A DNA stretch of 63,153 nucleotides, counting the filler, from Hausera hauseri (Eukaryota): NCBI GenBank assembly GCA_046269625.1. It is 12 parts of 12 records of this genome, joined end to end, with 100 filler letters (N's around TTAATTAATTAA, not from the genome) between each part and the next. Parts side by side here need not be neighbours in the genome. Positions count along the whole stretch, not along the records: positions 1 to 8,148 come from JBJURY010750986.1; 11 more parts are not named here. One strand, written 5' to 3'. The position numbers and the translations under genes were made by a program. The notes beneath the pieces were generated by a model. The model did no database searches. It was not told the DNA's origin and saw nothing but the letters and a program-made list of their open reading frames with translations. Shown here piece by piece: positions 1-45,669 of this stretch (position 1 is its first letter; the number at the start of each line of letters is the position of its first letter).

Positions 1-557
1 GTGGATCAACAATTGTCTCTTTAATTGTATCGGCAGCATGTTTCTTTATTTGAGGTACTGCATCGAGTACATTTTGTGTATCCACTTTCTGATTGTGTGC
101 CTTTTATCTCCGTTTTATTAACCGTCTTTGTATTTTTTTCTAACCAATGACTCATCCACGAACCACTTCCTTCCTTTCCTTCTTTGGCGGGGGATATGGT
201 GCCATGTGCTCACATCTACCTACTTCTGTCTTTCTAAAATATTCCTTGAGAACCTATAGAAACAGACAAAAAATTCGAGATTTCTAAATTATTTTTGAAA
301 TTGTGTTACAAGTTTCGATTTGTTTCTTGTACAAGTCGGCAGCAGCAAGGGTACCAAAGGGAAATTGACTCGGTGTCAATACAATCCTGGTTTCATTTTA
401 ATAACACAACTGCTCACCGAGTCGCCGTTGTTTTAAAACTGTTGTCAATATTATCGAAGAATGATTTTTCCGAGTCACAGAAACCTTAAACAACGTTACT
501 TATGGACCAAAGTTCAGATGCTGCAAATTAAAAAAATGATAGTTTTTAATAAGATTA

Positions 558-1592
558 AAATGCTCAAAAGCGGATTTTACTAATGAACCTTGTAATATAA
601 AAAGGATAGAACCATAATCCTTTTCCAAAGCACCGAAGCATTTAAATACTGAAACTGTATACACAAAGCAGCCAAGAGGTAGGCCGAAAAAGAATTCACA
701 GATTATAAGTGACGCTAAAAAGAAGAGTGAATTCGAGAATGATGGAATAAGAAAGTCAAAAATGGACAGTGACAAAAACGTTTTACCAAGTATTAAGGGC
801 GAATCAACAACAAATTCACTAATCAACAACACAAATGAGGCGATTATATCATTTTAATTGAGTGCATGTCCTACGCCCGAAACTATTAAGAACAGTAGTC
901 CGATAACGACTGAAAAACTTGGATTATTTAATGAGTCCGACAGTAAAAACTAGCATTCTCCGCCAAAGAACTCACCATGGCTTAATATGTGTTATGTGTG
1001 TGATTATTCAAAATCTTCGTCTCATAAGTTTCCGTACATAGTTCAACGATTTTTATCGAAAGAACACATCGTCATATCTCTTACTCACTGGACCTCACCC
1101 ATATCTCCTGCGTTTGATGGTGGTTTGGAAGGCAGAGAAATATATGTACATAGACCGCCGCTGATGCTCGAAGCCATAAACTGACATCAGAGGCATAAGA
1201 CTAAAAATGCAACATTTATGAAACTCTTTACAAATATCGATTATCGACTAACGAACCTCAAATCGTCCCTAATTGTGACGTTATACGAGCAAGTCTCGGT
1301 AATTTTGGCGAATATTGAAAACAATCAGTACCAATAGGAATTAATTACGGTGTATTTTGAATAGCCCAATGAGGCATGGCTTAAAATCATTGATAAAACC
1401 TCAGACGATGCTACAGTTCTGCTAGATTCTCGAGTTTTCGGTATTGTAAGACCAATTTTAGAAATGATTGCTCGATCATTGTTGATGCTTCAAGACGAAT
1501 ATATTAATCAGCTTATCGAAATTTGCCCTACATCTTTTGATCGACTGAATCTTATGTCACTAAACCTTATTCGAATTACACAGAAGGTATGA
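558..1592 (+). pseudogene. Degenerate ORF of unknown family with an AT-hook motif
   Basis: One frame, interrupted by several stops, carries KQPRGRPKK (666-692), the CYVC-containing ORF 987-1184 and QLIEICPTSFDRLNLMSLNLI (1509-1571). Boundaries approximate. Confidence 0.45.
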
Positions 1593-2985
1593 GTCAATGG
1601 ATGTCTAGCATGTCAGCAATATAAAATACATAAACACCTCAAACCAACACTTTACCACTTCTCTTGCACTTCTCGTTTTGAAACAGTATATTCAGATATT
1701 GTGGGTCCTCTACTTTTCGACAGTGGTTATCAATATATCCATGATGGATCGTGCTTCCCGTTGGCTTGAAGCCGTTCCACTTTGATCAACCAACACCAAC
1801 TTAGTAGCAGATGCATTTATCAAGATATAGGTCAGCCGCTTTGGCTCACCACGTCACATCATAATGGACCAGGGTCCACAATTTGAAGCTGATATTTTCA
1901 CATCTCTTCTAAAGCATTTGGGTATAGCCCATCTCCATATGACGCCGTACTATCCCCAAGCAAATGGTATTCTCGAGAGATTTAATCGCACCATGAAGAT
2001 TTCCATAAAAATCCTGGCAAACAACAAACATAACTGGACCTCAATTCTTCCTCTTGTCCTACTCGGTTGGAGCAACACGCCATCCACCACCACAAGCTCT
2101 GAACCAGCTGAGGCTCTCTTTGAGACACCCGTTCGTGCACTATTTGAGCTCTCCAATCTCGATGAAAGTCTGTCAGATAAAGTTTTTCGTATGACACAGT
2201 TTCACGTTACTGATATCAACTAAAATGCATTTTGTCGTCTTATAAATAAAGACAAATTTTATATCCCAGAGGACTTATACTCAGCCAAGTTTGTATGCCT
2301 GAGGGATCTGTCACCTTCTGGTTTTCGGCCTCAATACGTTAACCCTTACAAATTACTGAACCTTTTTACGCACACCGCTACTATTTTACGCAAGAACAAA
2401 CCTCAAAACGTACACATCATTAATCTTAAGCCAGCAGTCTTCGTTGACGATGACGAGGATAACAGCATTGTCTCAAATTTCAACTCTAACTTCTCTACCC
2501 TCAAGCCTTCATCTAATTTCCTTGATGATTTTAATCTGTCGCAGCATTCACTATCGCGTCACAATTAGCTCTCTTCACTTCCGTCATCATCCACTGCTCC
2601 ATCAACATTGGCTTCTCCGTTATCGCCTGAACATCCACTGCTCATTTCACCGTTATCTCACGATTCTTTGCAATTTTCAGTTTTGTCTTCTGCGCGTGAT
2701 CCCTTACCCATTTCAGCTCCTTTTCCACTCTCTCCTCTTCATGAAGCATTCTCCCAAAACACAACAAAATCTACAGTATCCCTCCTTCAAACAACTCCAC
2801 AAGCACCAGTAACATCTAACAGATCACGTTATGTGACGTTTAATACTTACAGCAGGGAGAAGTTTATAGATGGAGTCCAACGTCTAACACGTACCAAAAC
2901 CGAATATGTACAAGCTCTTCTTTTACTACTATAATTTCTATTCATTTTTTCTCTTATTATTCTACGTTTTGCCACGGGGGAGTGA
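1590..2985 (+). mobile_element. Ty3/Gypsy family A (CsRn1-like) pol 3' end: integrase, Ser/Pro-rich tail, PPT
   Basis: CLACQ zinc-binding end, DIVGPL, DQGPQFE, TPYYPQANGILERFNRTMK. Tail ends YVTFNTYSREKFIDGVQRL. PPT GGGGGAGTGA at 2976-2985 is followed by TGT. Stops and frameshifts present. Confidence 0.92.
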
Positions 2986-3066
2986 TGTAGTGCTTAAAGT
3001 GTGGTCGCACAGGAGGGGTTAGCGAATTAATGGGAGGCCTTTCCCCACAATGTGACTACACTTTTA
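2986..3066 (+). repeat. Start of 3' LTR with imperfect hairpin
   Basis: TGTAGT directly after the PPT. AAAGTGTGGTCGCACA pairs imperfectly with TGTGACTACACTTT. Confidence 0.6.
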
Positions 3067-3116
3067 AACATTTTACGTGTAAATAATAATTTCAAATAAT
3101 ATATTCTTTTTGAATT

Positions 3117-4667
3117 ATGTTCAATAAATGTATAGAGTTAAAACGACTTTCTTTTGATATTTTAATCAAAACAGTGGACAAAAAACATACGTTATTTGCT
3201 GCGATATATCACAAAATTCTCGCGTTGCAGGAAAGTGATTGTACGTTGTTTGTGCAGCGGAATTTAACAGGCGATATTTCCATGCACCAACTAAACGTGA
3301 TTGCTAATTTTATATTTGTGCCTTTACTAACTAATCCCAAGGATCGGTGTCTGATATACCGTCATCCCCTCAATACTATAATCGGTACTAATATTCTCTC
3401 ATAATTGACAAAAACGCACTTGGTGATTTAACAAAAATACACCATTCAGTAAGACATCTGTGCCCCCGTCGAAAAGAATCAACAATAGTACCATTTGTAA
3501 TGAACATGTTAGTTCAGAATGAATTACTTTTAGGAACACTGATTTACGGTGGTTACAACTTGCCTGCATTTATTGTTGTTATCGTATTACCTTACGAAAC
3601 AAGATCGATTCTGAAGAGCCAACGATCCACAAAAGTGAATAACTAACTGACAGTTACTATATCGAAAAAGAAGCTTCAGAAAAGGAGTGGAAGGCCTAAA
3701 TCAGTCAGACTTATGCCAGCAACAAAAATACAAAGTTGACAAAATTAAATAGAATAATGGACAGTATGAAATTGGTCGAAATTTTCATAAAAATACATAA
3801 AAAGGCAAAATAAACCGATAGGAATATCATCTTGTCCCAATATTCCTCGAACTCAAGGTCAAATACTTGTCGATTATCGACAATAGTAGTTCCTATCCGA
3901 ATTTCAATTACCAATCAAATAAATCAGTGAAGGATATGATTGCCCTCATTACATCCATATGTATATATGCTATTAAATATTCTAATGTGTATTTATTGAT
4001 GAATAATAAAATGGCAGATTTTCACCAAGATTCAAAATACCCATTGATTATGGCAATGGCCAATATTTTGATTAGAAGCCAAACGTCAACTTTATTGAAA
4101 CGGAAGCCATTGTTTGAAGAAATCACAATGAAACACCAATTTTACAATACGATAATACCATTCGACGTGGAAATGCGTAGAGAATTTCTCGTCAAATATG
4201 ACAATTCAATTACTGGACAAGTCCGAATTTATCGCAATACATTTCCTACATTACATCAAACAAATGACAACAAGACAAGCAATTGTAGAAATGTACCGTC
4301 GTATATTTCTTACCGACATAAAACACAATCGAGTAGGTTCAGAGACAAAAGATTGGAATGCTTTGGTGATGCTGCTATTCAACCAATTACGGGTATTCGT
4401 CTGTTTAATATATTACTCGAACTATCCGAGGGGCATCTCGACGCCTTTTGCCAGGCTTTTGTTCAGAAACATTATCTAGCTGATTGGTCTGTGAGATTGG
4501 GTTTTCATAAACTTTTACTCTACACGCATAATACCAATTTCCCATACGATTCACTATTCACCCATGCCAGTTCAGACGCTTACAAAAGGTTCCTTTACGC
4601 ACAAGTTATCGAATTGACCGAAAAAATGAATTCTTTGGGTCTTACCACACTGAACCTTATACACTGA
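3117..4667 (+). pseudogene. Unknown ORF(s) downstream of the LTR head (putative cargo)
   Basis: ORFs 3117-3404 (95 aa) and 3867-4667 (266 aa), co-oriented with the element. No recognisable domain. Confidence 0.4.
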
Positions 4668-4941
4668 TGGAATTAAACTTGTATTGACAATTGTGACCGG
4701 TCGGGTTAAAACCATGTTTTCAACGGCTCAACCAATAGCTAAAAGATACTAGATAAAATATAGAGCGATACCACTGTTAATTTCGATAAATATTTGTTAT
4801 TAAAAAAATAATCCAAACGGGTAAAGAAATTCAAAAATTCAAAATAATGGCAGAAGATCAATCAAATCAATTTATTTCCACCTAAGTTCAAAAAATATCT
4901 AACATAAATACCATATTTAAACAAAAGGTATTAAAAACAAC

Positions 4942-6066
4942 TCAACAATACTTTGGTAAAAATCCTCTACAGTCTGACGAACTACAACAAACTATCGACG
5001 AAAAAATGGAATTTTGTTGATTTTCTTGACAATAACTGAATGTCAATTCTTCACCTTGTCGAATATTTCTGAAAGTAAAAAAAGAAACTCAACAATATAA
5101 AATGCTTGTTGTCGATATAGATTGGCAGAATATACAAATTCGGACTGCCGGAATGATTGATGATTAACGACTATGGCATATCGGACAGACTGTCAAAGGC
5201 CAACGGGCCACCATCGATGGAAATTACAACGGAATTTTTTCCGTATTGTATCAAAATTTAGCAAATAATTTCGTCCAATTGTTTTCAAATATTCTTTTCC
5301 TCTCGTTAAACTTTTTTCCAACGGAACATATTCTCCTTCATAATTAAGTATGAATGTATTCTCATTAATGTCCGTCAATGCAAACAACCCACTACCAACA
5401 CAGTCATTAACAGATTTAAAAAACACTTCTTGAAATTTGACATTTTCTGAATGAATCTATTTTCACATTCATTGTTACAAGAACAGTTAGAGTTGCATTC
5501 GTAGAGGAAAATTAATCTTGGTAGGGGATACTGAAAGATTACCTTGGTAAAAAGATGATTTAATCATCTGATTATATTTTCAGAAAATTCCGCCACAATT
5601 GTTAGTTAGAAAAGATTTAGTTTTATATGCGTTTGCTGACGATGTTTGGAATGTCAATAATCGCTGATAGGTTACGAGAATGTATTGTTGCTGGGATAAA
5701 TCGTCTGTTGTCACATAAATTTGAACTCTGTGATAGATGGATTGTTTTTAGAGTGGGACTGTTTTCGAATTTGTCAATACAGATTTTGATAAGACGTTAT
5801 CTGTCAAATTTAACGGCAAAGTCCACGAGCACTCTTTTTGGGTTTCTGTTCTACATATCTTTTAGTTATATTTGTCATTTTCTGAATCACAAGAGTCGCT
5901 TTCGTCATCAAAGATGTTTGTTCGAAAAATATTGATTGTTTGTTTCTTCGAAGATGTGACTCGATATTTCAGCTTTTCCTTCCAAGACGAAAAGTAATTC
6001 GTATAAAATCTAAAATTTTATTAGGAACATATGTAAATTCAATTCAGATATGTTTTCTATTTTCAT
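4942..6066 (-). pseudogene. Intronless Su(var)3-9/SUV39H-like histone lysine methyltransferase (pre-SET, SET, post-SET, possible N-terminal chromodomain), degenerate
   Basis: Manual translation across frameshifts gives LYECNSNCSCNNECENRFIQK (pre-SET, ~5445-5505), GSGLFALTDINENTFILNYEGE, TRGKEYLKTIGRNYLLNFD, TIDG, INHSGSPNL (~5135-5160), VSFFTFRNIRQGEELTFSY (~5032-5088) and VCCSSSDCRGFL (post-SET). Stop at 4944-4942, ATG at 6066. Motif order and spacing match SUV39H as recalled. Confidence 0.88.
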
Positions 6067-6067
6067 C

Positions 6068-6197
6068 AGTTAACATTTTTAAGGCGGAAAATCGGGGTCT
6101 GCCTATGCGCCCGACGCGCCTGTGGCGGAAAATCCGATCGTGACCAACCAAATGGGCCGGAGGGCGACGGTCGACGCGGGCTCCACATCACACCCCT
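6068..6197 (-). repeat. PPT and GC-rich 3' LTR head of a family A element
   Basis: PPT AGGGGTGTGA (6197-6188), then TGTGGAGCCCGCGTCGACCG from 6187. The ~120 bp head is homologous to 17641-17760, and homology ends exactly at the TGT. Confidence 0.8.
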
Positions 6198-8148
6198 GTG
6201 GAAAAGTTAGAACTATAAAAAATAAAAGACAGAAAAAAAACGCAAAACGAAGTGTTTTAGCTGAGCTTAGTGTGAATAAGACGTTGAATGCCTTCGACTG
6301 ATTTTTCCCTACTATACTAGCTGAATGTGACTCTGCGTGTGGTATGTTTGTGCAATGTGTCTGTTTTTAGAGATTGATGTTGGGGAAAAATTGGTAGATT
6401 TTGGTGTAGGTGTTGTGTCGCGTGAAGGTGAATCGGAATAAAGAGAAGAAAAAGACAAAGAAGAAAGAGGGATTGTTAAAGACGGATGGTTTAAGGTATT
6501 GGAAAGAATTTTAGAAGACGAAGGAGTGACGAAAGGTGTAGTGACGGGTAAAGAAAGAGAGGAAGAAGTTGGAGTAGAAATTGGAGTTGTGTTGAATGAA
6601 AGAGTGGAAGAAGATGATACAGAGGTAGTGGTAGAGATAGGAAGAGTGGAAGAAATAGAAGGAAGAAGTGTAGGAAATGATGGAGCAAGACTGGGCGCGG
6701 AAGAGGAAGGTGGAAATGGTGTAGCAATAGATGTAGTGATAGCAGGGAGTGGAGGAGTAAGAAAAGAGTTTGACGTGTCGGTTGCTAAGGTGTCGTCGAC
6801 AAAAAAGGCAGGCTTTAAGTTGGTGATGTGTACTGTGAAGTCTTTGCCGTCTTTGGAGATGATGGCGTTATGCGAGTGTAGCTTTATAAGTTTATAGGGC
6901 CCCATGTACCGTGGCTGAAAACCGAAAGGACCTTGATTTTCAGCCATACGAATTTAGCCGTATACAAATCTTCGGGTAAGTATGTTTTGTCTTTGTAAAG
7001 TATCCTGCAGAACGAATCTTTGCTGACCTCGACGAAGTATTTTCCGCTGCCCGTATTGTCTCTTCCGTAGAAATGTCGTCTAGGGCAATTAGTTCGAATA
7101 ATGATCGGACAGGAGCTCCAAGTAAGGCTATAGTAGATGAGCTTCCTGTAGAAGTGCACGGAGTGTTCCGACAGTCGAGCAAAACGAACAAAAGAAGATT
7201 TGTCCAACTACTGTTGGACTCTGCAAGAATTCTTAGTGACGTTTTCAATTCACGATGGAAACGTTCTAGGAGGCCATTTGATTGGGGGTGAGAAGGTGTA
7301 GTAAATATATGGTGGATACCCAATCGATTGACAAGGGATTTGAACAGGTTGGATTCAAACTGTGGACCCTTGTCCATGATGATGAAGCGAGGTTATTCAC
7401 ACCTGCTAATCCATGTGCGAATGAAAACGTCAACTATGGTGTCAGTGTTTTGCTCCGCAGAGGGATGGCTTCTGGCCATCGCGAGGAATGGTCCATCATG
7501 GTGAAGATGAATTGATGACCGTTGTCTGGAGGAATAGGGACAACGATGTCGGTATGCACGGACTCAAAACGCGGTGTGCAGGGAAGTGGAACAGTAGTGG
7601 CTTTTAATGCTTAGCTGTTTTGTATTTTTGGCAAGACACACACTCTTTAATCCATGCCTGCTCATCAGAACGCATTGACAACCATATTACTTGTCGATGA
7701 AGTAGACGAAAAGCGGCTTTAGCACCAGAATGGTGTAGTGAATGCACATGGTGCTAGATTTATTACTGAATGGCTTAGTTTGGAGGTGTCCAAAGCCATG
7801 CCGTCAACGATTGTGCAAGATTTAAAAGACGTAAGCACGTCTTGAGGTGGCTGGTTTTGTTGAAGTTGTTCGTGCGTAAAAATCGGAGAAAAACTAATCG
7901 AACTAACCGACCTAGATAAAAAATCAGCAGCTAAATTGTTAACTCCGTTAATATGTTTAATATCGAAGTAAAATGTCGATAAGTATGATATTTGTCATTC
8001 TTGGCCTGTGGAAGGGTGTTTATGGCCATGCTGTTAAATAAGGGTTTGCGATAGGTTTGTATAGTGAAATAACGAGCGACAAGCAGGTGTAAGAAGTGCT
8101 TTAAAGCGAGAATGATTGCCAATAATTCTCGATTAAACGTGGGATATC
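6198..8148 (-). mobile_element. Ty3/Gypsy family A pol: RNaseH end, integrase, Ser/Thr/Pro-rich tail
   Basis: ELLAIILALKHF, HSLHHSGAK, DKGPQFES, HPQSNGLLERFHRELK, PRYMGPY. Tail ends RRVTFS*YSREKSVEGIQRL. Degenerate. Confidence 0.93.
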
Positions 8149-8248: not shown

Positions 8249-8559
8249 AAACATAACTATACATCCTGTTGCTTCAAATGTAGTATCATATTTCAAAATT
8301 TAACACACATAATCTGCATTAGTTAAAACTTAAATAATTCTTGTCAGAAGGACAAATTTTTACTGTTTTAAAAAATTCACATTTGTTTAATAATCTGCAT
8401 AAAAGACACTGATTACATTTTATATGAATCTTAACTTTTTTCACATGTATTTGATTATTAACATTTGTTATGAATTATTCTTACAACCACTACTGTATAT
8501 TTAACAATTATTTTTAATTTTAATACCCTGTATAGCCACCATTTTTAAAATTACTTTAT

Positions 8560-9420
8560 ACACCCGTTCTTTTATTGATAAAACTAAGTTTTTTAGATAT
8601 TCCTCCAACATTTCTTCCCAGGTTCGACAAATTGATGCTTCCAATTGAGAAACGGTGCCATATTGTCGTCAACTGGAGTAGAAATGTATTCTCAGCCGCT
8701 TTCCATCGGATTCAAGTCGGGAGAACGAGGTGGCCACGGCAGAACAGGAACTAACCACTCGTATGTTGATTTTGAAGCATGAATAGGAGCATTGTCCTGT
8801 TGGAAAATACTTCCCCGGTCAGCCATTCTAACTATCACGAAGTAGTCCGCACCTAAAGTACATCCTGATAATCTTGGGATGTTGATCGTGTCTGTACAAG
8901 TCGTAGTTCGCTCCTGCCGTGACACCGAAATGCTCCCCAGAACATACATAAACTGCCTCCTGAAAAAATGTTTAAGATGTACAAATGCTTGAGAGATAAT
9001 ATGTCCCTTAACTTACCAAATTGAAGTTTTGAAAAAATTTCCTTTTCCTTCTTTAAATCATGTCATTAGTGTACGAATCTGTCCGGACCGTCAAGGTTGA
9101 ATTTTTCTCATGGGAAAATACTATTTTCTCCCACTATTTCGTCAATGTCCGATGCTCTTTTGCAAATTCAAGATGGTTCTACTTCTGTTTCTTCTTGAAT
9201 GTGGCTAAATTCTTCGTTTTCGCCATTTTAAATAATTTGTTCATTTAACAATGTTGTAGACGGTCCTAAAATTGGCTCTGGTAGGCAAATCTCTTTAGAT
9301 CGATCGAATAGAATCTCTTCCTAAAGGAGCCAAACTGGCTACAATTCGTTTGTCTCTTAGCTTAAGAACTTGCTTCCTACCTGGGAAATGATTTTGCTTA
9401 GTATATTTTTTACCTATCTT
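8560..9420 (-). mobile_element. Tc1/mariner-superfamily (Tc1/Tc3-like) transposase remnant
   Basis: [10 protein letters not shown]...[12 protein letters not shown], plus upstream FSHEK/FNLDGPD motif. Frameshifted; boundaries approximate. Confidence 0.88.
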
Positions 9421-9459: not shown

Positions 9460-12400
9460 CAGACGTATTAACTTGAAAGGCCCAATGTACTGAGGTTGGA
9501 ACCCTGCGACACTGGATTTCTCAGACAGACAAATTTAGCTGTATACAGAGTGTCAGGAATATATGCTTTGTTGTCAATTAAAAACTCTGCAAAACGAATC
9601 GCTATTTAACGCAACAAAATGTTCCTGCGCAGCCCGAATTGTTTCGTCGGTGGGTGTTTCATCGCATTACGCTAACTCAAACAATGCACGTACTGGTGTA
9701 CCAAAGAGTGCTTCAGAAGGATAGCAGCCAGTGGTTGTAGATGAAGTGTTCCGCCATCCAAGTAAAACGTAAGGGAGAAGGTTTATCCAGTGTTGATTGG
9801 AGTCTGATAATATTTTAAGAGAGATTTGCATCATGCGACGAAAACGCTCCAGTAGCCCATTTGACTGGGGATGATAAGGTGTTGTGTGGATGTGTTTGAT
9901 TCCCAGTCGATTTACTAGTGATTTGAAGAGGTTCGACTCAAATTGGGGGCCTTGATCCGTGATTACGTGCTTACGCGAGACAAATCGGCTGAGCTACGTG
10001 CGTATGAAGACATGTCCAATGGTCTCAGTGTTGGTTGAGCGAAGCGGAACGGCTTATGGCCATGTAGAAGCACGATACATTATAGTAAGAATGAATTGAT
10101 GGCCATTGTCTGGTGGTAGTTGACCAACTATATCTATATGCACTGTGTCAATGCGTAATGTGCAGGGAAAATGATAGACTGACGGCTTTAGGTGTTTGGC
10201 TACTTTAAACTTTTGGCATGCCGCATTTTCCATAACCCAATCATGCACATCTGTTCTCATTGATGGCCATATAACTTGGTGTTTAAGAAGGCGATAAGCA
10301 GCTTTGGATCCTGGATGATGCAGGGAATGGACATCGGTGAAGGCGGTTTTTTGCAAAGAAGGTGATAGAATAATTTTAGTAAACCTAGGATTAGAGGTGT
10401 CCAAAGCTACACCATCAACGATTTTGTAAGATTTGAAAGCGGAGAGAATAGAGACGTCTGGCTAGTTCCGTCGGAGCAACTAGTTGTCAAACATGGGTGC
10501 AAATGTGATCGAATCGACGGAAAGCGATAAAAAGTTAGGCACTAAATTATTTACCTCTGAAATATGTTTTATTTCAAACGCGAATGTCGAGAGGTACGAT
10601 ATCTGTCTCCTCTGACGTGGAGATAAAGATTTCATTGTGAGAATATGAAGTAGGGGCTTGTGGTCCGTTTGAATGGTGAATGTGCGTGAAATTATCAGAT
10701 GTTTAAAATGCCTTAATGCTAAGACCATTGCAAGAAGTTCCTTATCAAAAGTTGAATAGCGCTGTTCAACTTTTGCGAATTTTCTTGAGAAAAATTCAAC
10801 AGATTGATGAGAACCGTCGTTGAATTGACGCAATATTGCACTTGCTGCTGTTGTGGAGGCGTAAGTTGTTAGGAAAAGTTCCGAGTTTGGATTAGGGTAT
10901 GCAAGGATTTCTACAGTTTTTGGATTATCTTTGAGGTATTCGAAATAACTGACTAAGTCAACAGTCCAGTGAATAAGCTGGTTCTTCTTATCAGAGCTGA
11001 GTGAGGCAAATGGTACCGTAAGTGTTGAACAGTGCGGCACGTACTTGTTCACAAAGTGAAGTGTTCCGAGAAAGGAGCGCATTTCGGTCGATGTTCGTAG
11101 TAGTTTAATGTTTTTGAGTTGATTGATGCGATCTTGCTGAGGAGTGTGACCAGACTGAGTAATAACTTGTCCAAGAAAATTGATACCACATTGGAAAAAG
11201 GAGCATTTGGAAAAGTTTACATCAATGTTCAGCATGTTGTTTGGGAGACGACGAGACAATGAGTATGTCGCCTGCGTATTGAAAAGCAAAATTTAGGCCA
11301 GTAAGAACAGTGTCTATGTGTCTTTGGAATGTTCGCGAGGCACTGTGAAGAACAAAGGCATATAGACATATTCGAAAAGACCGAATGGTGATATTACAGC
11401 CATTTTCGGTATGTCAGCAGAAGCGACTGGAATTTGGTGATATGCCTTGTGGAGATCGATAGACGAAAAAATTGTTTTACCATTGGGTCTGTGCAATATG
11501 TCATTGATCAGTGGAAAGGGATGTGCCTCCATGATCGTTATGGTGTTTAATTGACAGTAGTCACCACAAGGTCTGAAAGTACCGTCTTTGTTGGCACGAC
11601 ATGCAAGGATGAAACCAAAGGTGACTTAGAACGTCTGATGATGCCAACGTTCTCTAAAGTTTGAAACTCTTCATCGACGGCTTTTCTGCCACGTGGTCAA
11701 AGAGTTCGCACTTTTTGCCGAATTTGACGTTGATGAGAGGTAACTATGTGGCGAAATGTTTTGGAGAGAAATTTAAAGCATGGGTCTTTTAGAGAATTCT
11801 TGGGAACTGCGTAGTGACAAATGTTTGCAGATCCGTTGATAGTTGGCAGAAAGATGGTTGGAATGGAGACACATGTTTGTCAGTGTCTAAGGTGGTTTGG
11901 TTTGATGTTATATTGTTGGAAGAGAGAGACTTGGTACTCTTAACACTCGAGGTTTGATTATGTGAATTATTTATAATATTCATATTTTTAAAGTAGATTT
12001 TATATCAGGTTTAGAAATTGGTTGAGTTAAATTGTTGTCAGTAACAAAATTATGCGCTGGTGAAATTGAACTCAACATATTCGAAACCGACATGGCTTTA
12101 GAACAAACGGCGGAGCTTTCCATCAAACGACGCTCTCTGCAATCAACTAGCAAATTGTATTGTGAAAGAAAATCAGATACAAGAACTGGTCTTTGTACAT
12201 GTGCTATAATGAATTTCCAAGAAAAAGGTTTGGAAAAATTTGACGGAGAAAAATAGAAATGTGCTGTGTCAATGGTACGCAACGGTTCACCATTGGCAGT
12301 AAATAATGATTTACCGGTTGAAGAAGATTTCTGAGATTTATATGAGAGAGGAGGAAGTGAGACTGTAGCTCCAGTGTCAATGAGGAAAGAGATAACAGAG

Positions 12401-13840
12401 TTTTTGGGCGTAATGGTAGCTTGCAGTGTAAAGACAGCAAAAATGCGTTACGGCTGTTTAATGAGGTGTTTGCGTTTTGACCAGAGATTGCTGTTACTTC
12501 TGGTGGCATTGTCAGTTTTTTGAAGGCGTTGCTGAGTTTGACTGCGCCGAAGAATTTTAAAATTTACAGCCTGATGATAAATGCAGACGGCGTCATTTGA
12601 TGTAAAATTTTGATTGTAGAATCTGTATCCTATGCAGCATTTATTGGCGCGTTGCTTAAATTTAGAGTGAAAAAAAAACAGATCAGGCTGTGCGCAGGAG
12701 AGTTGCCACACGAAGAACAATTCGATTTAGTTGGGAATTGTCTATTCCCAGAAAAAAGATCTACTCGGTAATGTAATGTGATTAAGTTTTCCTGTTATTG
12801 CTGTAATAGCTTGTCTTAAAGCTAGATTCTCCGCGTGTAATGACTGATTATCAATAATCGAAATTGCGTTTTGAGTGTATGTCGTTGGTGTTGTTATTGC
12901 TGCTGCAATGCTGGGCGAATTTTGAGTATGTAGTATATCGTAGCTTTTGTCAGTCAACTGGGCTAATTTTTCCAGTGAGGCGCTGTCCTCAACGATAGTA
13001 AGCAGGGCCCTGATCTCTTTCGGCAGGAATTGGAGAAAGTAGTGACGTATGAGATCAGCATTATGGTTTTGGGTCACACCCAGAGTACTAAGCTGTAAAA
13101 GGGATGTCCGAAGACATTCGGACGGTTTGATGTGACCTAATGCTTTTTCATTAAAGAGTTTTTGGATTATTGCATCGATAGATGGTTCGGTGAGCTTTAG
13201 AACTGCGGCGTGAAATGAGATATGTGGGTCCGCTTCAGCAAAGATTTCCATAAGATTTGATAAACGTGATTTTAGAAAAGAAGGAATGTAAAGAAGGAGG
13301 CTGTTGGCTTTTAAGAAAGAATCTGTCAGATTGTGAGCTTTTAACCAACGAGCATGGACGTCCAGCCAAGTCCGGGGAGAGTTTTGGCTGTCCAGAAAAA
13401 ATCGACACACTGGAACGTTGAGGAGTTGGAAGATGATTACCTAGATGACTAGGTATGAGTGACGTTTTTTTATGCTCCAAAGTATCGAGGTTAATATCAG
13501 AACCACGAAGAAGGCGAGGTTTAATTGATACGATTGGATGAACGGATCAGAGAAGCATGTGCAAGGGTGAATTATTTGAGTATTGGAGGAGAAGACCATT
13601 ATGATGAAGATAAAAGGTTTTAAAGACGAAATGGTGTCTGATAAAAGAATATAGCTGTTGCATTGTCGTATTTGTACATGTATGGTATGTGAATAGCATT
13701 TTATTAAGAAAGAAAAAGGAAATATAGGTCGGAAAGTGAATGCCATAGGCATGACGTGGTGCGCGAAGTACAGGCGTGCCCAGGCTCCAGGCGAAGTTGT
13801 GTTCGGGCCGTCTAACCGGAGAAATGGCGGCCAGAAACAA
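9460..13840 (-). mobile_element. Ty3/Gypsy family A element, near-complete gag-pol, degenerate
   Basis: Gag 12742-13410, CHCC remnants ~12550-12680, protease FLIDTGATVS (~12370), RT (IDLHKAYHQIPV, PFGLFEY), RNaseH (FFSRKF...YSTFDKELLAM), integrase (HSLHHPG, DIVGQLP, DQGPQFES). Confidence 0.95.
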
Positions 13841-13869
13841 TACCTAATGCCTCCCGTTCAGGAACGCAT

Positions 13870-14603
13870 TATTTGAGGAACAATATTGAATGCTTTGAAT
13901 GTTGTTCGTTGATTTTTTGTGTGAGTTACGTCGACGATGTTTTTTGCATTATTCCTTGTAGTTTGTTGCATTTCGTTTCGTGTTCGGAATTACACTTTGA
14001 GCAAAGTGTAATATTTCTGGGCCGCCTGAATGAGTTAAAACGTTATTCATCTTCCAATTCAATAAACAAAATCAAAGCTGTTAAAGCTTGAATTGAACTC
14101 TCTCGACTGTTCGTCATAATTGCACAAAGAGGCTGATCATCCAAATCTAAATGTATAGAAGAGTTTAGAAGAATACAGAGAAATATTATACTTGTGTGTA
14201 GTATACTTAGTGCTGCATTTGTAATATTTTTATCTAGATTTGTTCATTAATAAATGTTTTACGTGTCAATCTTGTTCACAAGCAATAAAACATGACGAAT
14301 AATATTTATTTACAAGTCTTTTTACAAAATCAGTGATTGTAGAAATAAATTTATTCTCTTTTGTCGCAGTCGAAGACAATTCCTGTAACAAATGCAGTAG
14401 ATAACGATATTCTTCCCGTTGTAAGGTGAGATTTTCCAATGCTTTTTCTGCTGGGATCAATTCAAATAGGATCCATAACGTATCATTTGTTAAAATTGAT
14501 TCTAAGTTTCGTAACGGGAAAAATTTCGGAAAACCACTTGCAATGTTGCGTTCACTTTCAGGTTTTATATAACAAACCGAACTGCTATCTGTTGTTATTT
14601 GGT
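13870..14603 (-). pseudogene. Unknown degenerate ORF upstream of gag, co-oriented
   Basis: ORF fragment 14266-14460 plus adjacent coding-like sequence. No recognisable domain. Confidence 0.25.
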
Positions 14604-14703: not shown

Positions 14704-16747
14704 TCCCCCGATTTTAATACAAGCAACATCGTTTGCATCTATCACGCAAAATTTGGAACAAAAGCACAAAAATGCCTACCGGGCTGTATCTACAACACGC
14801 ACAATAAAATCAACAATACTAAACTCACACAAAATAGTAGGCCAAACTCACCAGCTTTAAAACACTGATTTCGCCGCTAGGAGACACGGCAAGTTCTAGC
14901 AAAGGCAACAACCTACAAAAAGATAGCCGACACATTTCTTGCTGTATTCACGTTGGAAGCAGCAGTCGTCACTCCAACAAAGCAAAACATTAATTTTCTC
15001 ATAGAAACCGGCGTAGCAATCTCTTTACTACCACCAACATAGCACATCCAAAACAATTTCACTTCAAAAAGCAACTGTTCACTGCGTTTGGTGAACCTTT
15101 ACAAACTTTTGGTGTTACTAAATTAACTTTTACACTTCCAAATTTCCCAAACATATACACTTGGACATTTACAGTAGCCAATATACGCACACCTATATTG
15201 GGTTCAAACTTTCTGTCCCACTAAAATTTACTTGTAGATTGCAAACGATGTTCCTTAAAGAGCGGAAATAACTTTAATTAAATTAGAAGCATTTTGGTGA
15301 CCACCCGGGCGATCGCTTACAGCAAGTCAATACTAAAGAAAACGACTTCCGACTTAAATTATTTTTATAATCATTCATTATATAGAAATTTTTATTACGG
15401 CAACAAGTACGATATTGCCAACTGCGTGGCACCTATTACTGATAGTACAGCTGCCAACACCATCTTCAACACGAAAATCCTGCACTTAATACCACCTTGT
15501 CACAACTCCTTGTCTACAACTCATACCTCAACTGCATCTAGTCACGATGCATCGACACCATCTGAAAACTTTTCATCGTTGCCCTCTGACTTACAGCAAT
15601 ATATTTTGTCTTCCTGAACGCGTCTGTTGCAAAAGGACAAATCATCCACATGACATCACATAGTAACAGTACATCAAAGACCAATACGTCAAGGGTCCTC
15701 CTGCTATCGCCTCACCTCAGACAGGCTGTGGAGACTCAGTTTCTCGAACAGGAAAAATCAGGAATAATCAGAAGATCCAAATCCCCGTAGTCTTCACCCC
15801 TACATGTGGTTTTAAAAAAGATGGTACCTTTCGCCCATGTGGTGATTACCGCCAACTCAACATCATAGCAACAATGGATGCCTACCCTCTACAATTAATC
15901 AACGATATTCTTCACAGGCTCCATATTTTTTTCCTGCATTGATTTGCACAAAGCATACCACCAAATTCCGGTGGCCCCAGCAGACATTCCGAAAGCGGCT
16001 GTCATTACACCTTTCGGACTTTTCGAATACTTTTCCATGCCTTTTGGACACCGCAGCGCTTCCCAGACATTCCAAAGGCATATTGACACAGTTCTCTCAG
16101 GTTTACACTTTGTTTATCCCTATACCGATGACATCCTAATTGCATCATCTTCCTCGAAACAACACTCCGAACACTTAGGTTTAATCGTCCAGCGCTTGCA
16201 CCAAAACAACTTGCAAATTAATTTCTCCAAATGCTCTTTTTTCAACATAATGTCAACTTCCTAGGACATATTATTAGCTCATCCGGACATTCACCTCAGC
16301 CAGAGCGCATCACACAGCTTAAAAACATATGGCTACCACGTACGTCAACAAAAATGCGTTCTTTCCTCGGAACCTTGCACTTTATTCATAAGTATATTCC
16401 ACACTGCTCCACTGTAACCGTTCCATTTGCATCACTAAACTCTGGCAAGAAAAACAGCCTATTCAATGAACTGCCAAGCTAGTCAACGCTTTTGATCATC
16501 TCAAAGATAATCTAAAAACTGTGGAAATCCTGACCTATTCCGACTCCCATGCAGAACTCTTTTTAACCACGGATGCATCCATAACAGCTGCAGGTGCTGA
16601 CCTCCTTCAAGTAAAAAGTGGATCCCATGAGCCATTAGAATTCTTCTCTCGAAAATTTACGGCACAAGAGCAAAGATATTCCACCTTTGACAGAGAGTTG
16701 CTTGCAATGATCCTTGCCGTAAAACACTTTAAGCATCTGCTAACCGT
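14704..16747 (+). mobile_element. Ty3/Gypsy family A: gag end, protease, RT, RNaseH (truncated)
   Basis: CIYHAKFGTKAQKCLPGC (CHCC), FLIETG, HKAYHQIPVAPADIPKAAVITPFGLFEY, YTDDILI, TDAS, YSTFDRELLAM. Confidence 0.95.
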
Positions 16748-17123: not shown

Positions 17124-17760
17124 ATCGGGTCACCACCTAAATTGATCTGTAATTGCTAAAATTTACAAATTGACATCGCCGAACAAAATTCTAGAAAATC
17201 ATGGCAGCTAATAATATATTGAAATATTGACGGTGTTCGGATTGACAAATTTCACAAATGAAATATTTACACTAAACCGTAAATTTAAAATGTACACAAG
17301 TGCAAAATCTAATAATAAAATTATAAGTTCAATGTACGCGACCAAATGTCAGTGAATTTCAAATGAAAACCGAGCAGTACAAAAGTAGAGTTAAGGAACG
17401 AATGATAAGAATGAAATTAAACTTGAATAAATACAGCTGGACAATGCAAAATTGCAAAACCAAACGACTCCAATAAAATGTCTGCTAAATTTCAGTGATT
17501 TCAAAAATGTCTGTGATAGAATCATCGGGGATATCCATTTCGTGGGTATTGATATCGGATCGAAAATCGGAGAAACTTGCAGTAAAGGTCTCAAATTCGT
17601 TCATTCAACAATGTCACTAGTCCTTTCGAAAAGTATTTAAAATTGACATTTTCAAGGTGGAAAATCTGGATCCGCCTATGCTCCCGACACGCCGGCGGTG
17701 GAAGCCCGGCCGCGCCCAACCGTATGGGCCAGAGGGCAAACGGTCGACGCCGGCACCACA
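17124..17760 (-). repeat. Probable family A 5' LTR with tRNA-Trp-like primer binding site
   Basis: Starts TGTGGTGCCGGCGTCGACCG at 17760 (homologous to 6187). TGGTGACCCGAT at 17135-17124 resembles the tRNA-Trp PBS used by CsRn1-clade elements. A terminal CA is not cleanly adjacent to the PBS. Confidence 0.6.
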
Positions 17761-18420
17761 ACTGGTGTAGTTAAAATCCTTAACAAAATTGTTAATCTTA
17801 TACCAAATATAAGGAATCCCATCTCGATAATTTCTTTGAGAAATTCTGTTGGCCTCATACTTGATTTAAAATTGGACTTATAAATTCGTTTTAAAAGTAC
17901 AAAATTATATTTATTTTATAATGGAGACAATGACAAATAAATGCGTTTGCGCTAAAATGTTAACTATTTGTTTCAGGGAAGTTTTACGTGGTATTTTTGT
18001 TTAAAAGCATCTAAATAGTGTAAATAAAGTCCCAGAAGCCTGACATGTACTCAATGACAGGTGAATAAATGTTTCTCAATCACTCACCTGCTGTAACTCA
18101 AATGACAAACACACACAAACAAGCCGTTAGTTTACTGTCGATAATTTACACAAACATATGACATTTATAATTTTCATAAGAATTTTCCCTGATATCGCAG
18201 TTACTACAGTCTCCACATTTCGACCAGAGTCGATCCTCTGATAATCTTTGACCCCTAAACTGTTTTATCAAACCCCAACTACTAGTTACTGAGTGATGTA
18301 ATAAATCGTTCCAAAAGTAAATGTATTTACAGATAAAACAATAATCTGATAAATCGATGTCTGTCTAAGAGAGTTTTCTTCACGCTAACGGTTTTGTAAA
18401 AAATCGTACATCTGGCCCAC

Positions 18421-40184: not shown

Positions 40185-40687
40185 GAACGATGGTTCATGA
40201 ATGTTTGTGAACACCAACTTACCATCGACAATAGTTACGAAACTCTTGTAATCGTGAAAATAAAACGTACATGGTGACATTTTTGGATGAAACATTCAAA
40301 AATGAAGGAATGCCGGAAATTGTATTAGCGCAAAAATGTCGGACTGATACAAGTAAAAAAGCAAGTTTTTTTTAAATATTAAAACAAAAAATAAAAAAGG
40401 TCGGGGGAATCAGACTATTATGCATTAATCCCCCACGACTCCGTTATTTTTGATGTGGTAAGCCGTTTTGAAGAATTTTGAGAATGATATTTTCCCAATT
40501 TGAAAACATTTTCTTTTTTTTGAATATACAAATTTATTGAAATAATTCGGGTTCGGTGATACTGAATAATTGATATCAATCTCTGTTACTTCCAATTTTA
40601 AATTATTTGTAAAATAATACTAAATCCTAACGGAAGCTGTACAAAAATATATTCAATAAAAGTTAATTGCCTTTGGCTACTTATTTC
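40185..40687. repeat. Unclassified interspersed repeat, copy 1
   Basis: Clearly alignable by eye with 49270-49790, e.g. AATAATTCGGGTTCGGTGATACTGAATAAT is identical in both. Confidence 0.85.
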
Positions 40688-41279
40688 TTCACAGGCGTTT
40701 ATTCAGACATTATGTACATCGACTTCCTGATTTAAATAATTTATTCTTGTTTGATAATCTTCAAGACAAATTTTCTATTTGATGTATCCAGCATTTTTAC
40801 TACGATTTAATTGAACTGCATGAGATTTATTATGATATCCACCATATTAAATTCCGAGTTGGAGAGTAACTCCAACGTAATATTGTTCAGATATGTTTTA
40901 CATCAGGTCGGTAGTTGGTAATGAGCATTATGATATTGTCGTAATGCAACTGTGTGATAATGACACATGTCAATCCCTTTGCGTAAAAAAACAGAAACTT
41001 TACGGGCCTTAAGTTAGCTTCCGTATTTCTTGCAAGACTATGCAAAACCAGTGAATTCAGTGAGTATTTTTATGCGCTTGACGCACATTAGTTGGGCTTG
41101 TATTGTCATTCGTTACTTCCAACTTGAATCCAGGCTTTTCGACAACGATTATGAAACAAACGGTCAAAATAAAAATAGAGTAATTGGTAGCCTGATAAAC
41201 AACTAAATAAGAATATTTATTTTATTTGACACTGATATGGACTGTTTGGCTGCAAATCAAACACAGGCCAAAAGTTAAA

Positions 41280-41379
41280 CGACAGAACGAAAACCGTGCC
41301 GGCCTAGCTGCACCAAATGGTGACTTGATTGCCAAAAATGGAGAGCCATGTCCTAGACCGTGACAGGACATCACCCCCC
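41280..41379 (-). repeat. PPT and 3' LTR head of a family A element
   Basis: PPT GGGGGGTGA (41379-41371), then TGTCC...GGACA hairpin from 41370. Confidence 0.65.
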
Positions 41380-44300
41380 GTGGCAGTATAGAAACTATAA
41401 AGCAAAACAGAAAGGGATAAAACTCAAAAAAATGTTTATTGCCTATTGGGTTTTGGTGTGTATGAGGCGTTGTATTCCGTCTGCGGATTTTTCCCTATTA
41501 TAGGTACTAAATGTCACTCTGCATGCCTTATTTGATTGATTTGTGCTCGGCTGTTGAACGACATTTTGTGGTAGACGTTTTGTAAGATTTTCTGATTCAG
41601 TGTACCGTGTTGCTTGTGGTGAAGACGTTGAAGATGATAAAGAGAATAAGTCAAGCAAAAGAGGCGAAGAAACTAAAGGCGATGAAACAGAAGGCAGTGG
41701 AGATGAAGAAAAAGTGGGAAGAGAGTCGAGCGAAGAAAACGGAATAAGCGATGTAGGTAAGATGAAAATGATTTAGTGTGAGAGAAAAGTAATTGCTTCA
41801 ACGGAGCGAAGTCGTGGAGAAAGTTTGAGGAAGGAATGGAAGGAGTGAGAGTTGAGTTGGGATTGGAAGCAGAATCGGCATCCGGATTGTCATCAACGAA
41901 GAAGCGGGCTTAAGATTCGAAATGTGGACGTTGTAGGGTTTATCTTGGAGTAAGATGGTAGATGTATAAAATGAGAGGTGAACGTGTTTGTATGGCCAAC
42001 ATATTATGGTCGGAAACTTGAAGGCGATTGATCCTTCAGCCATACAAACTTGGCTGAGTATAAATCCTTCGGAATGTACGATTTGTTATTGTTAAACAGG
42101 CGGCAAAAAATCTGAGCTGACCTCAACGAAGTGAGACTGTGTCGCGCGAATGTTTTCGTATGTCGGATTGTCGTCGAGGTTGGAAAGTTCAAACAGAGCC
42201 CGTATTGGAGTCCCAAAATGTGCCTTGACTGGAGCACAACCTGTGGTGGTGGAAGGTGTGTTGCGCCACCCCAGTAAAACAAATGGTAGGATAGACGTCC
42301 AATTGCAATGATTGTCTACGAAGATTTTTAAAGAAATTTTCATTGTTCGATGGAACCTTTTAAAGAGGCCATTTGATTGTGGGTGATACGATGTTGTATG
42401 GAAATGTGATATCCCCAAGCGTTTAACAAGCGATTTAAAGAGCTCCGACTCGTACTGCGGACCTTAATCCTTTATGATGTGTCGTGGGCAGCCAAAACAA
42501 CTGATCTAGATTTTAATGAAGGCATCGGCTACTGAATCAGTGTTTGTTAAAAGAAGAGGAACGTCTTCAGGCCAACGCGAAGCACGATCCATCATAGTGA
42601 GAATATGTTGATACCCGTTGTCAGAAGGTAAGGGGCCAACGAGATCAAGATGGACGGTCTGAAAACGTGATGTACAGGGGAAATGGTAAAACGGCGGTTT
42701 AAGATGTTTGTTGACTTTTTATTTTTGACAGGCTACGCATTTCTTAACCCAGCTTTGTACATATGTGCGCACTGATGGTCAAACTACATGACGATGGATC
42801 AAGCGAAATGTCGTTTTCGAGCCTGGATGATGAAGCGATTGCGTGTGAAGGAAAGCTGGTTTCTGCAATGAAGGAGCAAGAATGGTTTTTTTATTACCGG
42901 GGTTAGATGAGTCGTATGCATTGCCGTCAATGATTTCGAAAGATTTGAAAGAGCTAAGAATGTCAGCAGATGGCTGATTGAGCATTAGAATTTCGGAATA
43001 AAATATTGGTTAAACCGTAATTGAGCCGACCGACCGCGACAAAATTTTCAATATCTGAAATATACTTTATGACAAAACTAAATGTAGATAGATACGATAT
43101 CTGTCGTTCCTGCCTCGGTGATGGTTGTTTTAGTGATATGATGTGCAGTAGAGGCTTGTGATCGGTTTGGATGACAAATGGACGAAAGAGGAAGACATGT
43201 TTAAAATGTTTTACTGCCAGAACTATGGCTAGTAGCTCACGATTAAATGCTGAATATCGGCTTTCTGATTGTGTAAGTTTTCGAGAGTAAAATTCTAAAG
43301 GTTCATCGACGCCGTTGGAAATATGGTGTAGTATTGCACCAGCAGCTCTTGTAGATGCATCGGTGGTAAGTATCAGCTCCGCGTCGGGCTTTGGATAGGC
43401 CAGTATTTTCACGGTTTTTATGCCTTGGCGTAAGTGATTGAATTTGGTGACTAAATCTGGAGTACACTGGATTAACTGTCTTTCTTTCCAGATGAGAGGT
43501 GTGCGAAGGGTGCTGTAAGCTTAGAGCAATGCGGTACGTACTTATGGACAAAATGTAGTGTGCCTAGATTACTCCTTGTATCTGCAGAGGTCGTTGGTAG
43601 TGTTACACTTTTCAATTGCTGTAGTTGATTGTGTTGTGGAGAGTGACCGTGAAGAGTAATGATGTGTCCAAAGAAATTGACACGTTTCTGAAAGAAGTAG
43701 CACTTGGAGAAGTTAACTTGTAAGTTGTTATAATGTAGTCTGTGAAAAATAATTCGGAGATGTTCATGGTGTTGTTTGACGGAGTTGGAGGCAACTAATA
43801 TATCATCGATGTACGGATGAACAAAATCAATGCCTGAGAGAACGGTGCCAATGTGGCGTTGAAAGGTTTGGGCTGCGTTACGTAAAATGAATGGCATAAA
43901 GATGTTTTCGTAAGGGTCAAATGAAGTGCAACGGGAATTTGGTGGTAGGCTTTGTGCAGATCTATTGTGGAACAGGTATTGATGTTGTTAAGACTGTGTA
44001 GGATGTCCTTTATGAGCGGTAATGGGTAAGCATCCATGATGGTTAGATTGTATATTTGACGGTAGTCCCAACATGGTCGAAAGTACCGTCTTTTTGCTGC
44101 TACATAAAATGGTAAAGCCCGTGGTGATTTTGACCTCCGAATGATACAAGATTGTTCGAGTTTGTTAAATTCTAACTCCACAGCTTTTCATCTACGAGGA
44201 GATAATGGTTTCACCTTTGTCTGACAGGTCTTTCGTGTTGGGTCACTATGCTGTTGATGGGAGCTTAAAACTAGAGTCCTTTTTGAGTATGCGAGAACAA

Positions 44301-45300
44301 GAAGAAATCATGTAGGATTTGAGATTGGAATCTATGATAAAGATGATTGATGTATATCATGAGAGGAGGTGGTGACTGTGATTGACGAAGAACGACCAAC
44401 ATTGTCACCATGAACATTCGATTTAATCGATTGTTTTAAAATCGACTTCGATATTTGAGATGTAATTAAAAAATTGAAAAATTACTAAATGTATCGTTAT
44501 CAACCAATCGACAATTTGCAAAACTCACGTGTGAGTTTTCAGCCGAAGTACCTGTTGAGCTGTCTGGAAGACAATCGTTAACGTTCACGACGGCGTTTCT
44601 ACGTAGCAAGCAGCCATACTTTCAGTCAACTGGCAGATTGTATGCGGCCAAAAAATCTGAGCCGATTATGGGCCATTTAATATTGGCCACGTGGAATTTC
44701 CATATGAACTTGCCTGGTAAGTTTGAAAATGTAAAAACGAGTTCAATGGTACCTGCAATGCGCGGAGGTTGACCCCTGGCAATGAAAAGCGTGAGAGAAG
44801 AAACTGCAGTGGATGTAGGGACGAAGGACAAAGGAAGGAGTAAAAAGGCAGCTCCTGAATCAATAAGAAAATCTATATGCGAAGCATTGCTAGAGAACAG
44901 TGTAGCTTTTAACAGAAAAATTGCGGAGGCGGTGTTAAAACGGCTAGAAGACAAAGCGGTATTGCCTACGCAAGAATGTGCTGTGACATCTGGCGGCGTT
45001 TTTAGATTTTTGAAGATTGTGGAAGAAAAGAAGATGAATGATAAGAAGAAGGAGGAGGAGGCGAATATGAAGAAAAACTGAAGTTGTTTTTGTAATGTTT
45101 ACATCCCAGAACACACGATCTAGTTAGAGAGTGAAATTTTGTGTGGTAAATACAGATAGGACTGTTCATCGCAAAACGCTCGTCATAAAATTTACAGCCA
45201 AAGAGACATTTATCTGCGTTTTTACGAAATTTATTGTGATAAAAACAAATCATTTGTCCGCCCGGATATTTAGAATGAAATGAGTGCCTGGAGAAGCAGT
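41380..45300 (-). mobile_element. Ty3/Gypsy family A (CsRn1-like): gag end, PR, RT, RNaseH, IN, tail
   Basis: Two C-X2-H-X9-C-X3-C motifs (45002-45253 ORF), FLIDSGAA, IDLHKAYHQIPV, YIDDILV, TTDAS, HPQSNGL, tail RVTFSTYNREKSADGIQRL. Confidence 0.95.
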
Positions 45301-45669
45301 AGATGGATGTAAGTGCATGGCGTCAAGACCCCCCCAGGGAAAGAAAGCATTGAGCGTGGGAAAATTTTTGAACCGTGGGAAAATTTTTTATGTTATCGAG
45401 AGAAATTTCGTTCCTTGGTAGCTTAATTTTTATTGAAAGTTCTGTCTTGTGCAGAATTTAATTCTGCGTCGAATGGTGTAGGAGTCAACTTTATGTGACT
45501 TTTGCCTGTTGTGCTATAGCACAAAAATGTGCAAAATTTGCATATTTTTTTAGTTCTACGCGAGAAAATNNNNNNNNNNNNNNNNNNNNNNNNNNNNNNN
45601 NNNNNNNNNNNNNTTAATTAATTAANNNNNNNNNNNNNNNNNNNNNNNNNNNNNNNNNNNNNNNNNNNN

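Follow-up and report, generated by a model that had tools for sequence, protein, structure and literature searches.

In a stretch of 63,153 nucleotides from the genome of Hausera hauseri (GenBank assembly GCA_046269625.1), hereafter the window, decayed pieces of host genes lie co-oriented behind the 3' ends of three long terminal repeat (LTR) retrotransposons related to the CsRN1 clade of Ty3/gypsy, beyond the polypurine tract (PPT) and the first part, or head, of the LTR. These pieces resemble Drosha, a SUV39-type SET protein and ELOF1. On three cases, the association between heads and host genes is probably real, and the explanation that we favour, with about even confidence, is that the reverse transcriptase (RT) of the elements captured host mRNA by template switching and joined it at the side of the repeat (R) and unique 5' (U5) regions of a short LTR. 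LTR-mediated retroposition is a known process; the position of the host sequence (the cargo) behind a PPT and an LTR head was not encountered in the literature searched.

The window consists of 12 pieces of 4-8 kb each, separated by 11 identical N44-TTAATTAATTAA-N44 spacers of 100 bp, adjacency across which is unverified, and most of it is mobile DNA. Six pieces belong to the group of elements in question, called family A (copies 1, 2 and 3 and elements B, C and J; Table 1).

PPT junctions and the host pieces behind them

The motif CCACRGGGG-N0-2-GTGATGT, in which the PPT is followed by the TGT that opens the LTR, occurs exactly three times in the window (2972-2988 +, 6185-6201 - and 41368-41383 -), a count found in 0/100 shuffles, and the ~200 bp preceding it can be aligned across copies 1, 2 and 3. 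The three junctions with a shared pol tail described in an earlier note on this DNA are therefore confirmed. The same note treated them as copies of one family, which did not stand: integrase identity is 62-70% over ~610 bp (four integrases compared), and by this measure the 'copies' are separate families of one clade, so that LTR divergence is expected anyway and gives no evidence of exchange. Ahead of the copy 2 PPT, a T-rich tract (6200-6240 -) resembles a 3' splice site (CTAAC, pyrimidines, CAG/G), the AG of which is not kept in copies 1 and 3.

The first ~110 bp of each of the three PPT heads are GC-richer (39-64%), and in the AT-rich block beyond them AATAAA stands at +138, +166 and +145/150, respectively; head 1 is probably composed of the unique 3' (U3) region and R. 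A comparable stretch, opening with TGT and GC-rich sequence and having AATAAA at +178, lies ahead of gag in element B. Of the four heads, reported as short and structured or GC-rich, only head 1 folds better than its shuffles (z -2.8, against 0.3, -0.7 and 0.4 for heads 2, 3 and 4). Sequence after the heads had also been called unrelated. Different host genes do lie beyond them, but heads 1 and 2 share a block of ~110 bp containing AATAAA (+78..186 of head 1, 3063-3171, with +105..214 of head 2; z 8.1); of 1194 windows scanned, self and partner aside, the match was outscored by none for the head 1 block and by a single unrelated window for that of head 2.

Behind head 1, the region 3117-4667, previously listed as ORFs (open reading frames) of no recognised kind, contains at 3822-4667 an ORF that ends in the RNase III-a domain (RIIIDa) of Drosha, supported by PDB (E 1.5e-10), by a profile (E 1e-23) and by tblastn (46% to P0001/P0002 over 4293-4613), whereas the two shorter frames upstream are within chance length, frames as long being found in 33/300 and 86/300 shuffles. 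The Drosha ORF has 43 library matches, the best two at 40-47%; these two may be parasitic-flatworm proteins. The frame is longer than chance (0/300 shuffles contained one that long), and the longest frame of the adjoining integrase is 130 of 281 codons; among the five host pieces identified in the window, it alone is open longer than chance and than the adjoining integrase. It includes neither RIIIDb nor a double-stranded RNA-binding domain, conservation fails at the last acidic catalytic position, and it could therefore not do the work of Drosha; its stop falls 18 codons past the match. The relative P0009 has an insert of ~23 residues where the window sequence is continuous, which looks like a read-through intron.

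Homology to Drosha upstream of 4293 was considered and rejected: the colinear weak high-scoring segment pairs are not significant in frameshift-aware alignment (shuffles reached 17/40, then 3, 5, 33 and 4 of 60, with 0/60 for the positive control), and the one of four upstream sub-windows that beat 40/40 shuffles did so through an off-diagonal block of 8 residues and was discounted. Atlas leads to RNase III were below 0.9, and a viral origin of the piece is not favoured, because cellular Drosha gives the best alignments. A GC-rich mini-island (4692-4705), situated between the stop codons of the Drosha and SET pieces, loosely mirrors the start of head 2 and by eye could be an LTR end; it was missed by the terminal-repeat scan.

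The SET gene reported after copy 2 is present, decayed, and can be named: Pfam Pre-SET/SET matches have E values of 0.001-0.02, and the best single match, SUV39H2 (E 5e-5), suggests a SUV39-type piece, kinship with SETMAR, G9a or NSD being possible. The middle SET piece alone ranks NSD2/SETD2/EZH2 first, weakly. The pre-SET end and SET stand in order according to Pfam and PDB, and the post-SET was placed by eye; no chromodomain or pre-SET start was found upstream of 5540. Behind head 3, the cargo formerly regarded as an unclassified repeat starts with ELOF1 and is hence nameable, while its tail does recur, together with the ~480 bp that follow: at 49273-49790 there is a co-oriented second copy with 83% identity, which is cut by a gap and lies ~4 kb upstream of the gag of copy 3.

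A co-oriented host-gene match is thus found within 1.4 kb behind 3/3 PPT-anchored heads, against 0/1 for the region after a fourth head (read-through Pfam) and 0/24 frames in four control regions (6.5 kb) read likewise. As background, 107 frames taken from other DNA (22.3 kb) were scanned with Pfam as ORFs only; the matches were to beta-galactosidase (9 pieces), a guanylyl-cyclase exon and a DDE transposase, besides three weak ones (E 0.003-0.006). On this basis, ~14% of background start points have a co-oriented Pfam host match within 1.4 kb, a figure that leaves out the transposase and the three weak matches, and its cube is 0.003. Two further host pieces, Exportin-1 and TRAF, lie 5' of family A fragments and are co-oriented with them. 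The Exportin-1 piece has 6 stops in frame and passes, without a change of frame, into the truncated copy 1 integrase, DNA homology to which starts at 1582-1608; the TRAF fragment matches TRAF1 (E 3.6e-4) and Pfam MATH_2 (E 0.004). All 5/5 identified decayed host pieces therefore share the orientation of the adjoining element (1/32 by coin toss). In four of the five, the matched region is interrupted by stops or frameshifts or is truncated. Their matches are colinear, with no intron-sized gaps, and the two genuine host genes in the window are exon-split.

Cargo position and the fourth head

AATAAA stands upstream of all the matched host sequence behind the three PPT heads, significant host homology beginning at +537 (ELOF1), +676 (SUV39) and +1308 (Drosha). 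If these are poly(A) signals, the matched host sequence most likely lies beyond R and not in U3. According to the available text of PMC3601003, AATAAA is conserved in animal Metaviridae LTRs and U5 is taken to begin downstream of it; CsRN1-clade LTRs are given as 146-381 bp in that of PMC2582038. As background, 806/12281 windows of 56 nt contain AATAAA (7%), as do 303/1335 AT-rich ones (23%). The cargo also differs in composition from the element interior (GC 32-35% and skew -0.02 to -0.08, versus 41-44% and -0.24 to -0.38). The suggestion that U3 of these elements acts as an exchangeable gene-capture site is thus supported in so far as capture is tied to the 3' LTR (3/3 versus 0/4 controls); its placement in U3, which is doubtful, and its exchangeability have no such support, AATAAA preceding the cargo and neither a cargo-bearing LTR pair nor a shared post-cargo R/U5 having been found.

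A common R/U5 block after the cargos or before gag was looked for and rejected, only the ELOF1 duplicate being clear among 20 pairs (three others had p 0.05-0.06); the end of head 3 against element B was equalled by 26/500 shuffles. The window contains only three PPT motifs, and no further PPT-LTR follows the three post-PPT pieces. In a terminal-inverted-repeat scan, the best runs fell inside the heads (+75, +67 and +22), too early for LTR ends, since homology reaches +118 and +214.

Head 4 is 79% identical to head 2 over 119 columns, the two being alike for 118 bp and diverging at a common AAAATG. It does not follow a PPT and has no AATAAA, with AATGAA at +156; the head itself and the short MNEFETF frame reported after it (17604-17485, 39 codons) do exist. 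No host gene was recognised after it with PDB or Pfam. A guanylyl-cyclase exon ends ~630 bp upstream of head 4, which is probably an LTR that is either solo or truncated. No target-site duplication (TSD) of 4 or 5 bp was found for it within 1 kb, so that a short LTR closed by a TSD right after the head, which would make the cargo flanking DNA, was not encountered. The 9-mer behind it that resembles a primer binding site (PBS), of which 0.13 are expected per window, is a tRNA-Trp-like motif by the consensus in the available text of PMC2582038 (TGGTGAG/CCCCGT/A after the 5' LTR of CsRN1). By eye it was attractive to see in head 4 the 5' LTR of element B, element C having split a TRAF gene, but this was rejected, as no match to the TRAF N-terminal half was obtained with PDB or Pfam.

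Elements and other features of the window

Table 1. Positions of element parts, host pieces and related features in the window
Feature	Position	Strand	Remarks
Exportin-1 (CRM1)-like fragment, decayed	750..1592 (match ~1221-1524)	+	PDB phmmer E 0.0075, ungapped 81-101 aa
Copy 1	1585..2971, PPT to 2985	+	5'-truncated integrase and Ser/Pro-rich tail, CsRN1-like Ty3/gypsy; stops, frameshifts
Copy 1 PPT	2972..2985	+	
LTR head 1	2986..3171	+	TGT start, hairpin ~2987-3070, AATAAA at 3123
Two short open frames	3114..3646 (3114-3404, 3392-3646)	+	96 and 84 codons
Drosha ORF, C-terminal RNase III-a	3822..4667 (match 4293-4613)	+	281 codons; PDB, tblastn, profile
SUV39-type pre-SET end, SET, post-SET	4942..5512	-	three frames, colinear, no intron-sized gaps
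LTR head 2	5974..6187	-	TGT start, 64% GC over 110 bp, AATAAA at +166
Copy 2	6188..8148	-	RNase H-integrase-tail-PPT; ends at contig end
Element B	9479..13882	-	gag-pol, 3'-truncated
Element B, candidate short 5' LTR	TGT at 13882	-	GC-rich 110 bp, AATAAA at +178
TRAF-C/MATH C-terminal fragment	14266..14603	-	upstream of element B, cut by gap
Element C	14704-16743	+	family A piece
PBS-like TGGTGACCC	17127..17135	-	sole one in window, 625 bp behind head 4, no gag after
Head 4	17643..17760	-	LTR start without PPT; 79% to head 2
Guanylyl-cyclase catalytic exon	18388-18615	-	next exon not seen before head 4 or within 1 kb after
Beta-galactosidase (GH35) host gene	33549-39055	-	multi-exon, short introns; intron-density reference, 9 ORF pieces
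ELOF1 C-terminal end and ~480 bp downstream	40187..40686	-	
ELOF1/Elf1 match, decayed	40685..40834	-	50 codons ungapped, 2 stops; Pfam E 6.9e-8, PDB E 4.6e-10
LTR head 3	41182..41370	-	TGT start, AATAAA at +145/+150, possible end ...ACCA at +189 by eye
Copy 3	41371..45322	-	5'-truncated gag, two CX2HX9CX3C motifs, protease (PR)-RT-RNase H (RH)-integrase (INT), tail, PPT
Element J	~52600-50450	-	family A piece

Judged by their sequence, the family A elements are old, broken CsRN1-like relatives within Ty3/gypsy. A six-frame scan for the Gag motif CX2HX9CX3C gave 3 matches (45247 -, 45154 - and 14734 +); this CsRN1-type CHCC motif is tandemly doubled in copy 3 (45247 and 45154 -), and degenerate doubles are visible in elements B and J. 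The window holds no complete element, and no LTR pair or canonical LTR end was found. In elements B and J, which are decayed, a search allowing at most 2 mismatches gave no PBS ahead of gag. Rfam and tRNA scans gave 0 matches, and word-indexed homologue searches found nothing. In a GTDB scan, 9/67 candidate stretches were confirmed, all of them distant (30-43%) and in bacterial records, and these were not used.

Other mobile DNA is also present. A second gypsy family carries, at 55520-56704 (+), a Monjiviricetes-type fusion glycoprotein (Pfam E 1.6e-17) upstream of PR-RT; this env-like gene 5' of pol recalls the planarian element Burro, and a 70% related copy lies at 29678-31834 (-). At 53569-53609, a PBS-like motif on the minus strand, presumably iMet-like, is followed by its own inverted repeat, so that PBS-like motifs face both ways upstream of gag. 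A Tc1/mariner-like DDE_3 transposase remnant (8500-9060 -) adjoins the truncated 3' end of element B. Polinton/Maverick-type DNA polymerase-like frames were seen by eye at 23707-25138 (+) and 45670-47100 (-), Pfam giving 0 families for 24614-25135 and 45621-46202. A 77% direct repeat (60358-60615 / 62407-62680) around a gag-PR piece of a third LTR family could represent an internally deleted element with short LTRs; sequence adjoining the pair also scores against the AT-rich block of head 2. Finally, a 97-bp repeat (73%) occurs at the window start (132-228) and after a Polinton-like frame (25380-25470), and palindromic or inverted-repeat sequences, like miniature inverted-repeat transposable elements, lie in or near the beta-galactosidase gene (36742-36924, 36316-37022 and 39248-39590).

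Origin of the association and its consequences

According to the explanation favoured here, CsRN1-like elements with short LTRs of about 190-250 bp (a GC-richer U3, then AATAAA) would have had host mRNA packaged together with their own RNA. Minus-strand synthesis would pass through the host mRNA, switch to the 3' R end of the element, as we infer, and continue through U3, PPT and pol, giving a co-oriented, intron-free product of the order pol-PPT-U3-R-host cDNA. The Exportin-1/integrase junction would be the ordinary internal form, with the switch inside pol. Had U5 been retained at the distal end, the cargo would enter both LTRs during plus-strand synthesis and become heritable. Such chimeras probably arose once each or in few copies and have decayed since then, and the genes concerned were probably those with plentiful mRNA wherever the elements were active. 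That the cargo leans towards silencing is suggestive, but with five genes selection and mRNA abundance cannot be told apart. A further reading is rather improbable: CsRN1-like elements would have a capture site inside the LTR at R/U5, host cDNA joined there would be present in both LTRs and be expressed initially from the LTR promoter, and lineages would have kept fragments of genes for silencing, transcription, export and immune signalling (Drosha RIIIDa, SUV39-type SET, ELOF1, Exportin-1 and TRAF) as decoys or modulators of host defence.

A similar template-switch route is known from Ty1 of yeast. In mouse mammary tumour virus (sag) and human immunodeficiency virus (nef), coding sequence lies 3' of or across the PPT, and is fixed, intact, within U3 and upstream of the poly(A) signal, whereas the window has variable host fragments behind AATAAA. 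The ORF3 of bdelloid LTR elements stands ahead of the 3' LTR. As far as the available text goes, this variable ORF3 is likewise an exchangeable extra-gene slot at the pol 3' end, although an intact accessory ORF downstream of pol, the window pieces being broken and after the PPT (PMC5408684). Template-switch chimeras, partial and multi-gene, have been described (Tan et al. 2016, PMC5131818), and in the available text LTR-mediated retroposition similarly fuses partial host-gene copies to discontinuous parts of LTR elements; the junction of Exportin-1 and integrase is a direct fit. The retrocopies described there replace internal ORFs between two LTRs, an arrangement that the Exportin-1 piece shares on its 3' side only, whereas three window pieces lie 3' of a PPT and LTR head. 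Burro/GYPSM1 of planarians is, in the accessible account (PMC6431247), a gypsy element with host regulatory domains that include MATH_TRAF_C, once as an upstream accessory ORF; it is giant and env-bearing, with a CCHC Gag and cargo in the polyprotein or internal, and thus neither CsRN1-like nor loaded behind the PPT. With the CsRN1 clade (CsRn1, PwRn1 and AgCR; available text of PMC2582038), the window shares the CX2HX9CX3C Gag, the order gag-PR-RT-RH-INT, the absence of any env found, a PPT before a TGT start and one tRNA-Trp-like PBS motif. It differs in the doubled CHCC of copy 3, in having no PBS before gag and no TSD or LTR pair, and in the attached host-gene pieces, which that text does not mention. 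The literature searched, which included few subscription papers or Repbase reports, gave no case of such elements with host genes following their 3' LTR head.

Several points weigh against template-switch capture. The post-PPT cases are three, their parent genes lie outside the window, so that intron loss is judged indirectly, from colinearity and the one relative P0009, and the background is underestimated, as the Pfam scan missed Exportin-1. The AATAAA window was picked after seeing the data, and head 4 has no such signal. The DNA between head and match is unassigned, so the junction has been placed indirectly. No poly(A) remnant, U5 or ...ACA end was found after any cargo, and the post-cargo segments neither align nor share an R/U5 block. 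Nor does any retrocopy in the available text of PMC5131818 lie behind a 3' LTR head.

The strongest of the alternatives, possible but doubtful, is that the LTRs are ordinary and short and that the host pieces are flanking DNA (older retrocopies, decayed duplicates or cargo of other mobile elements) into which the elements inserted. LTR-like architecture is over by about +215, the cargo has a host-like composition unlike the element interior, the window is dense in other mobile DNA, head 4 resembles an insertion beside a host exon with T-rich DNA after it, and the ELOF1-tail duplicate is a multicopy piece without an adjoining head (its 5' side is lost in a gap). However, flanking DNA leaves the 5/5 co-orientation and the empty controls unexplained, head 4 has no TSD, and the Exportin-1 piece joins inside the integrase, not at an element end. 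Slightly less probable, and unlikely on balance, are long LTRs (1.2-2 kb) that contain the gene, in U3 or between R and U5, the cargo being present in both LTRs and swapped between lineages. In favour of such LTRs are the PBS-like 9-mer located at +626 of head 4 and the ELOF1 duplicate, the second tail recurring as an old 5' LTR of copy 3 would if the gaps are true joins; the parting of heads 2 and 4 at AAAATG after 118 bp, the open Drosha frame beside a broken integrase, and the host domains of Burro, MATH_TRAF_C included (PMC6431247, available text), point the same way. Against them, there is no complete LTR pair, the second ELOF1 tail is followed by neither a PBS nor a gag leader, head 4 with a split TRAF failed as the 5' LTR of element B, which has its own LTR-like stretch adjoining gag, the AATAAA ahead of the cargo speaks against U3, and the cargo is without the compositional skew of the element. 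Chimeric joins in a fragmented short-read assembly, finally, are very improbable: the window is made of 12 spacer-joined pieces and several elements end abruptly, but each of the three junctions between head and cargo is internal to a contig, copies as diverged as these (62-70% identity) would not confuse an assembler, and misjoins would neither fix orientation nor make decayed, intron-free pieces.

If the host pieces were flanking DNA, the window would contain ordinary decayed elements in a pseudogene-rich region. If instead host mRNA was repeatedly joined behind R, the junctions would be a natural trace of first strand transfer via cellular RNA, through which retrocopies would gain a ready promoter and possibly inheritance inside the LTR. 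Pipelines for finding LTRs would then miss or mis-bound such elements, and where such genomes show additional 'genes' for Drosha, SUV39 or ELOF1, these may be cargo of elements. Were the cargo selected, an LTR element of an animal would have borrowed components of the silencing machinery.

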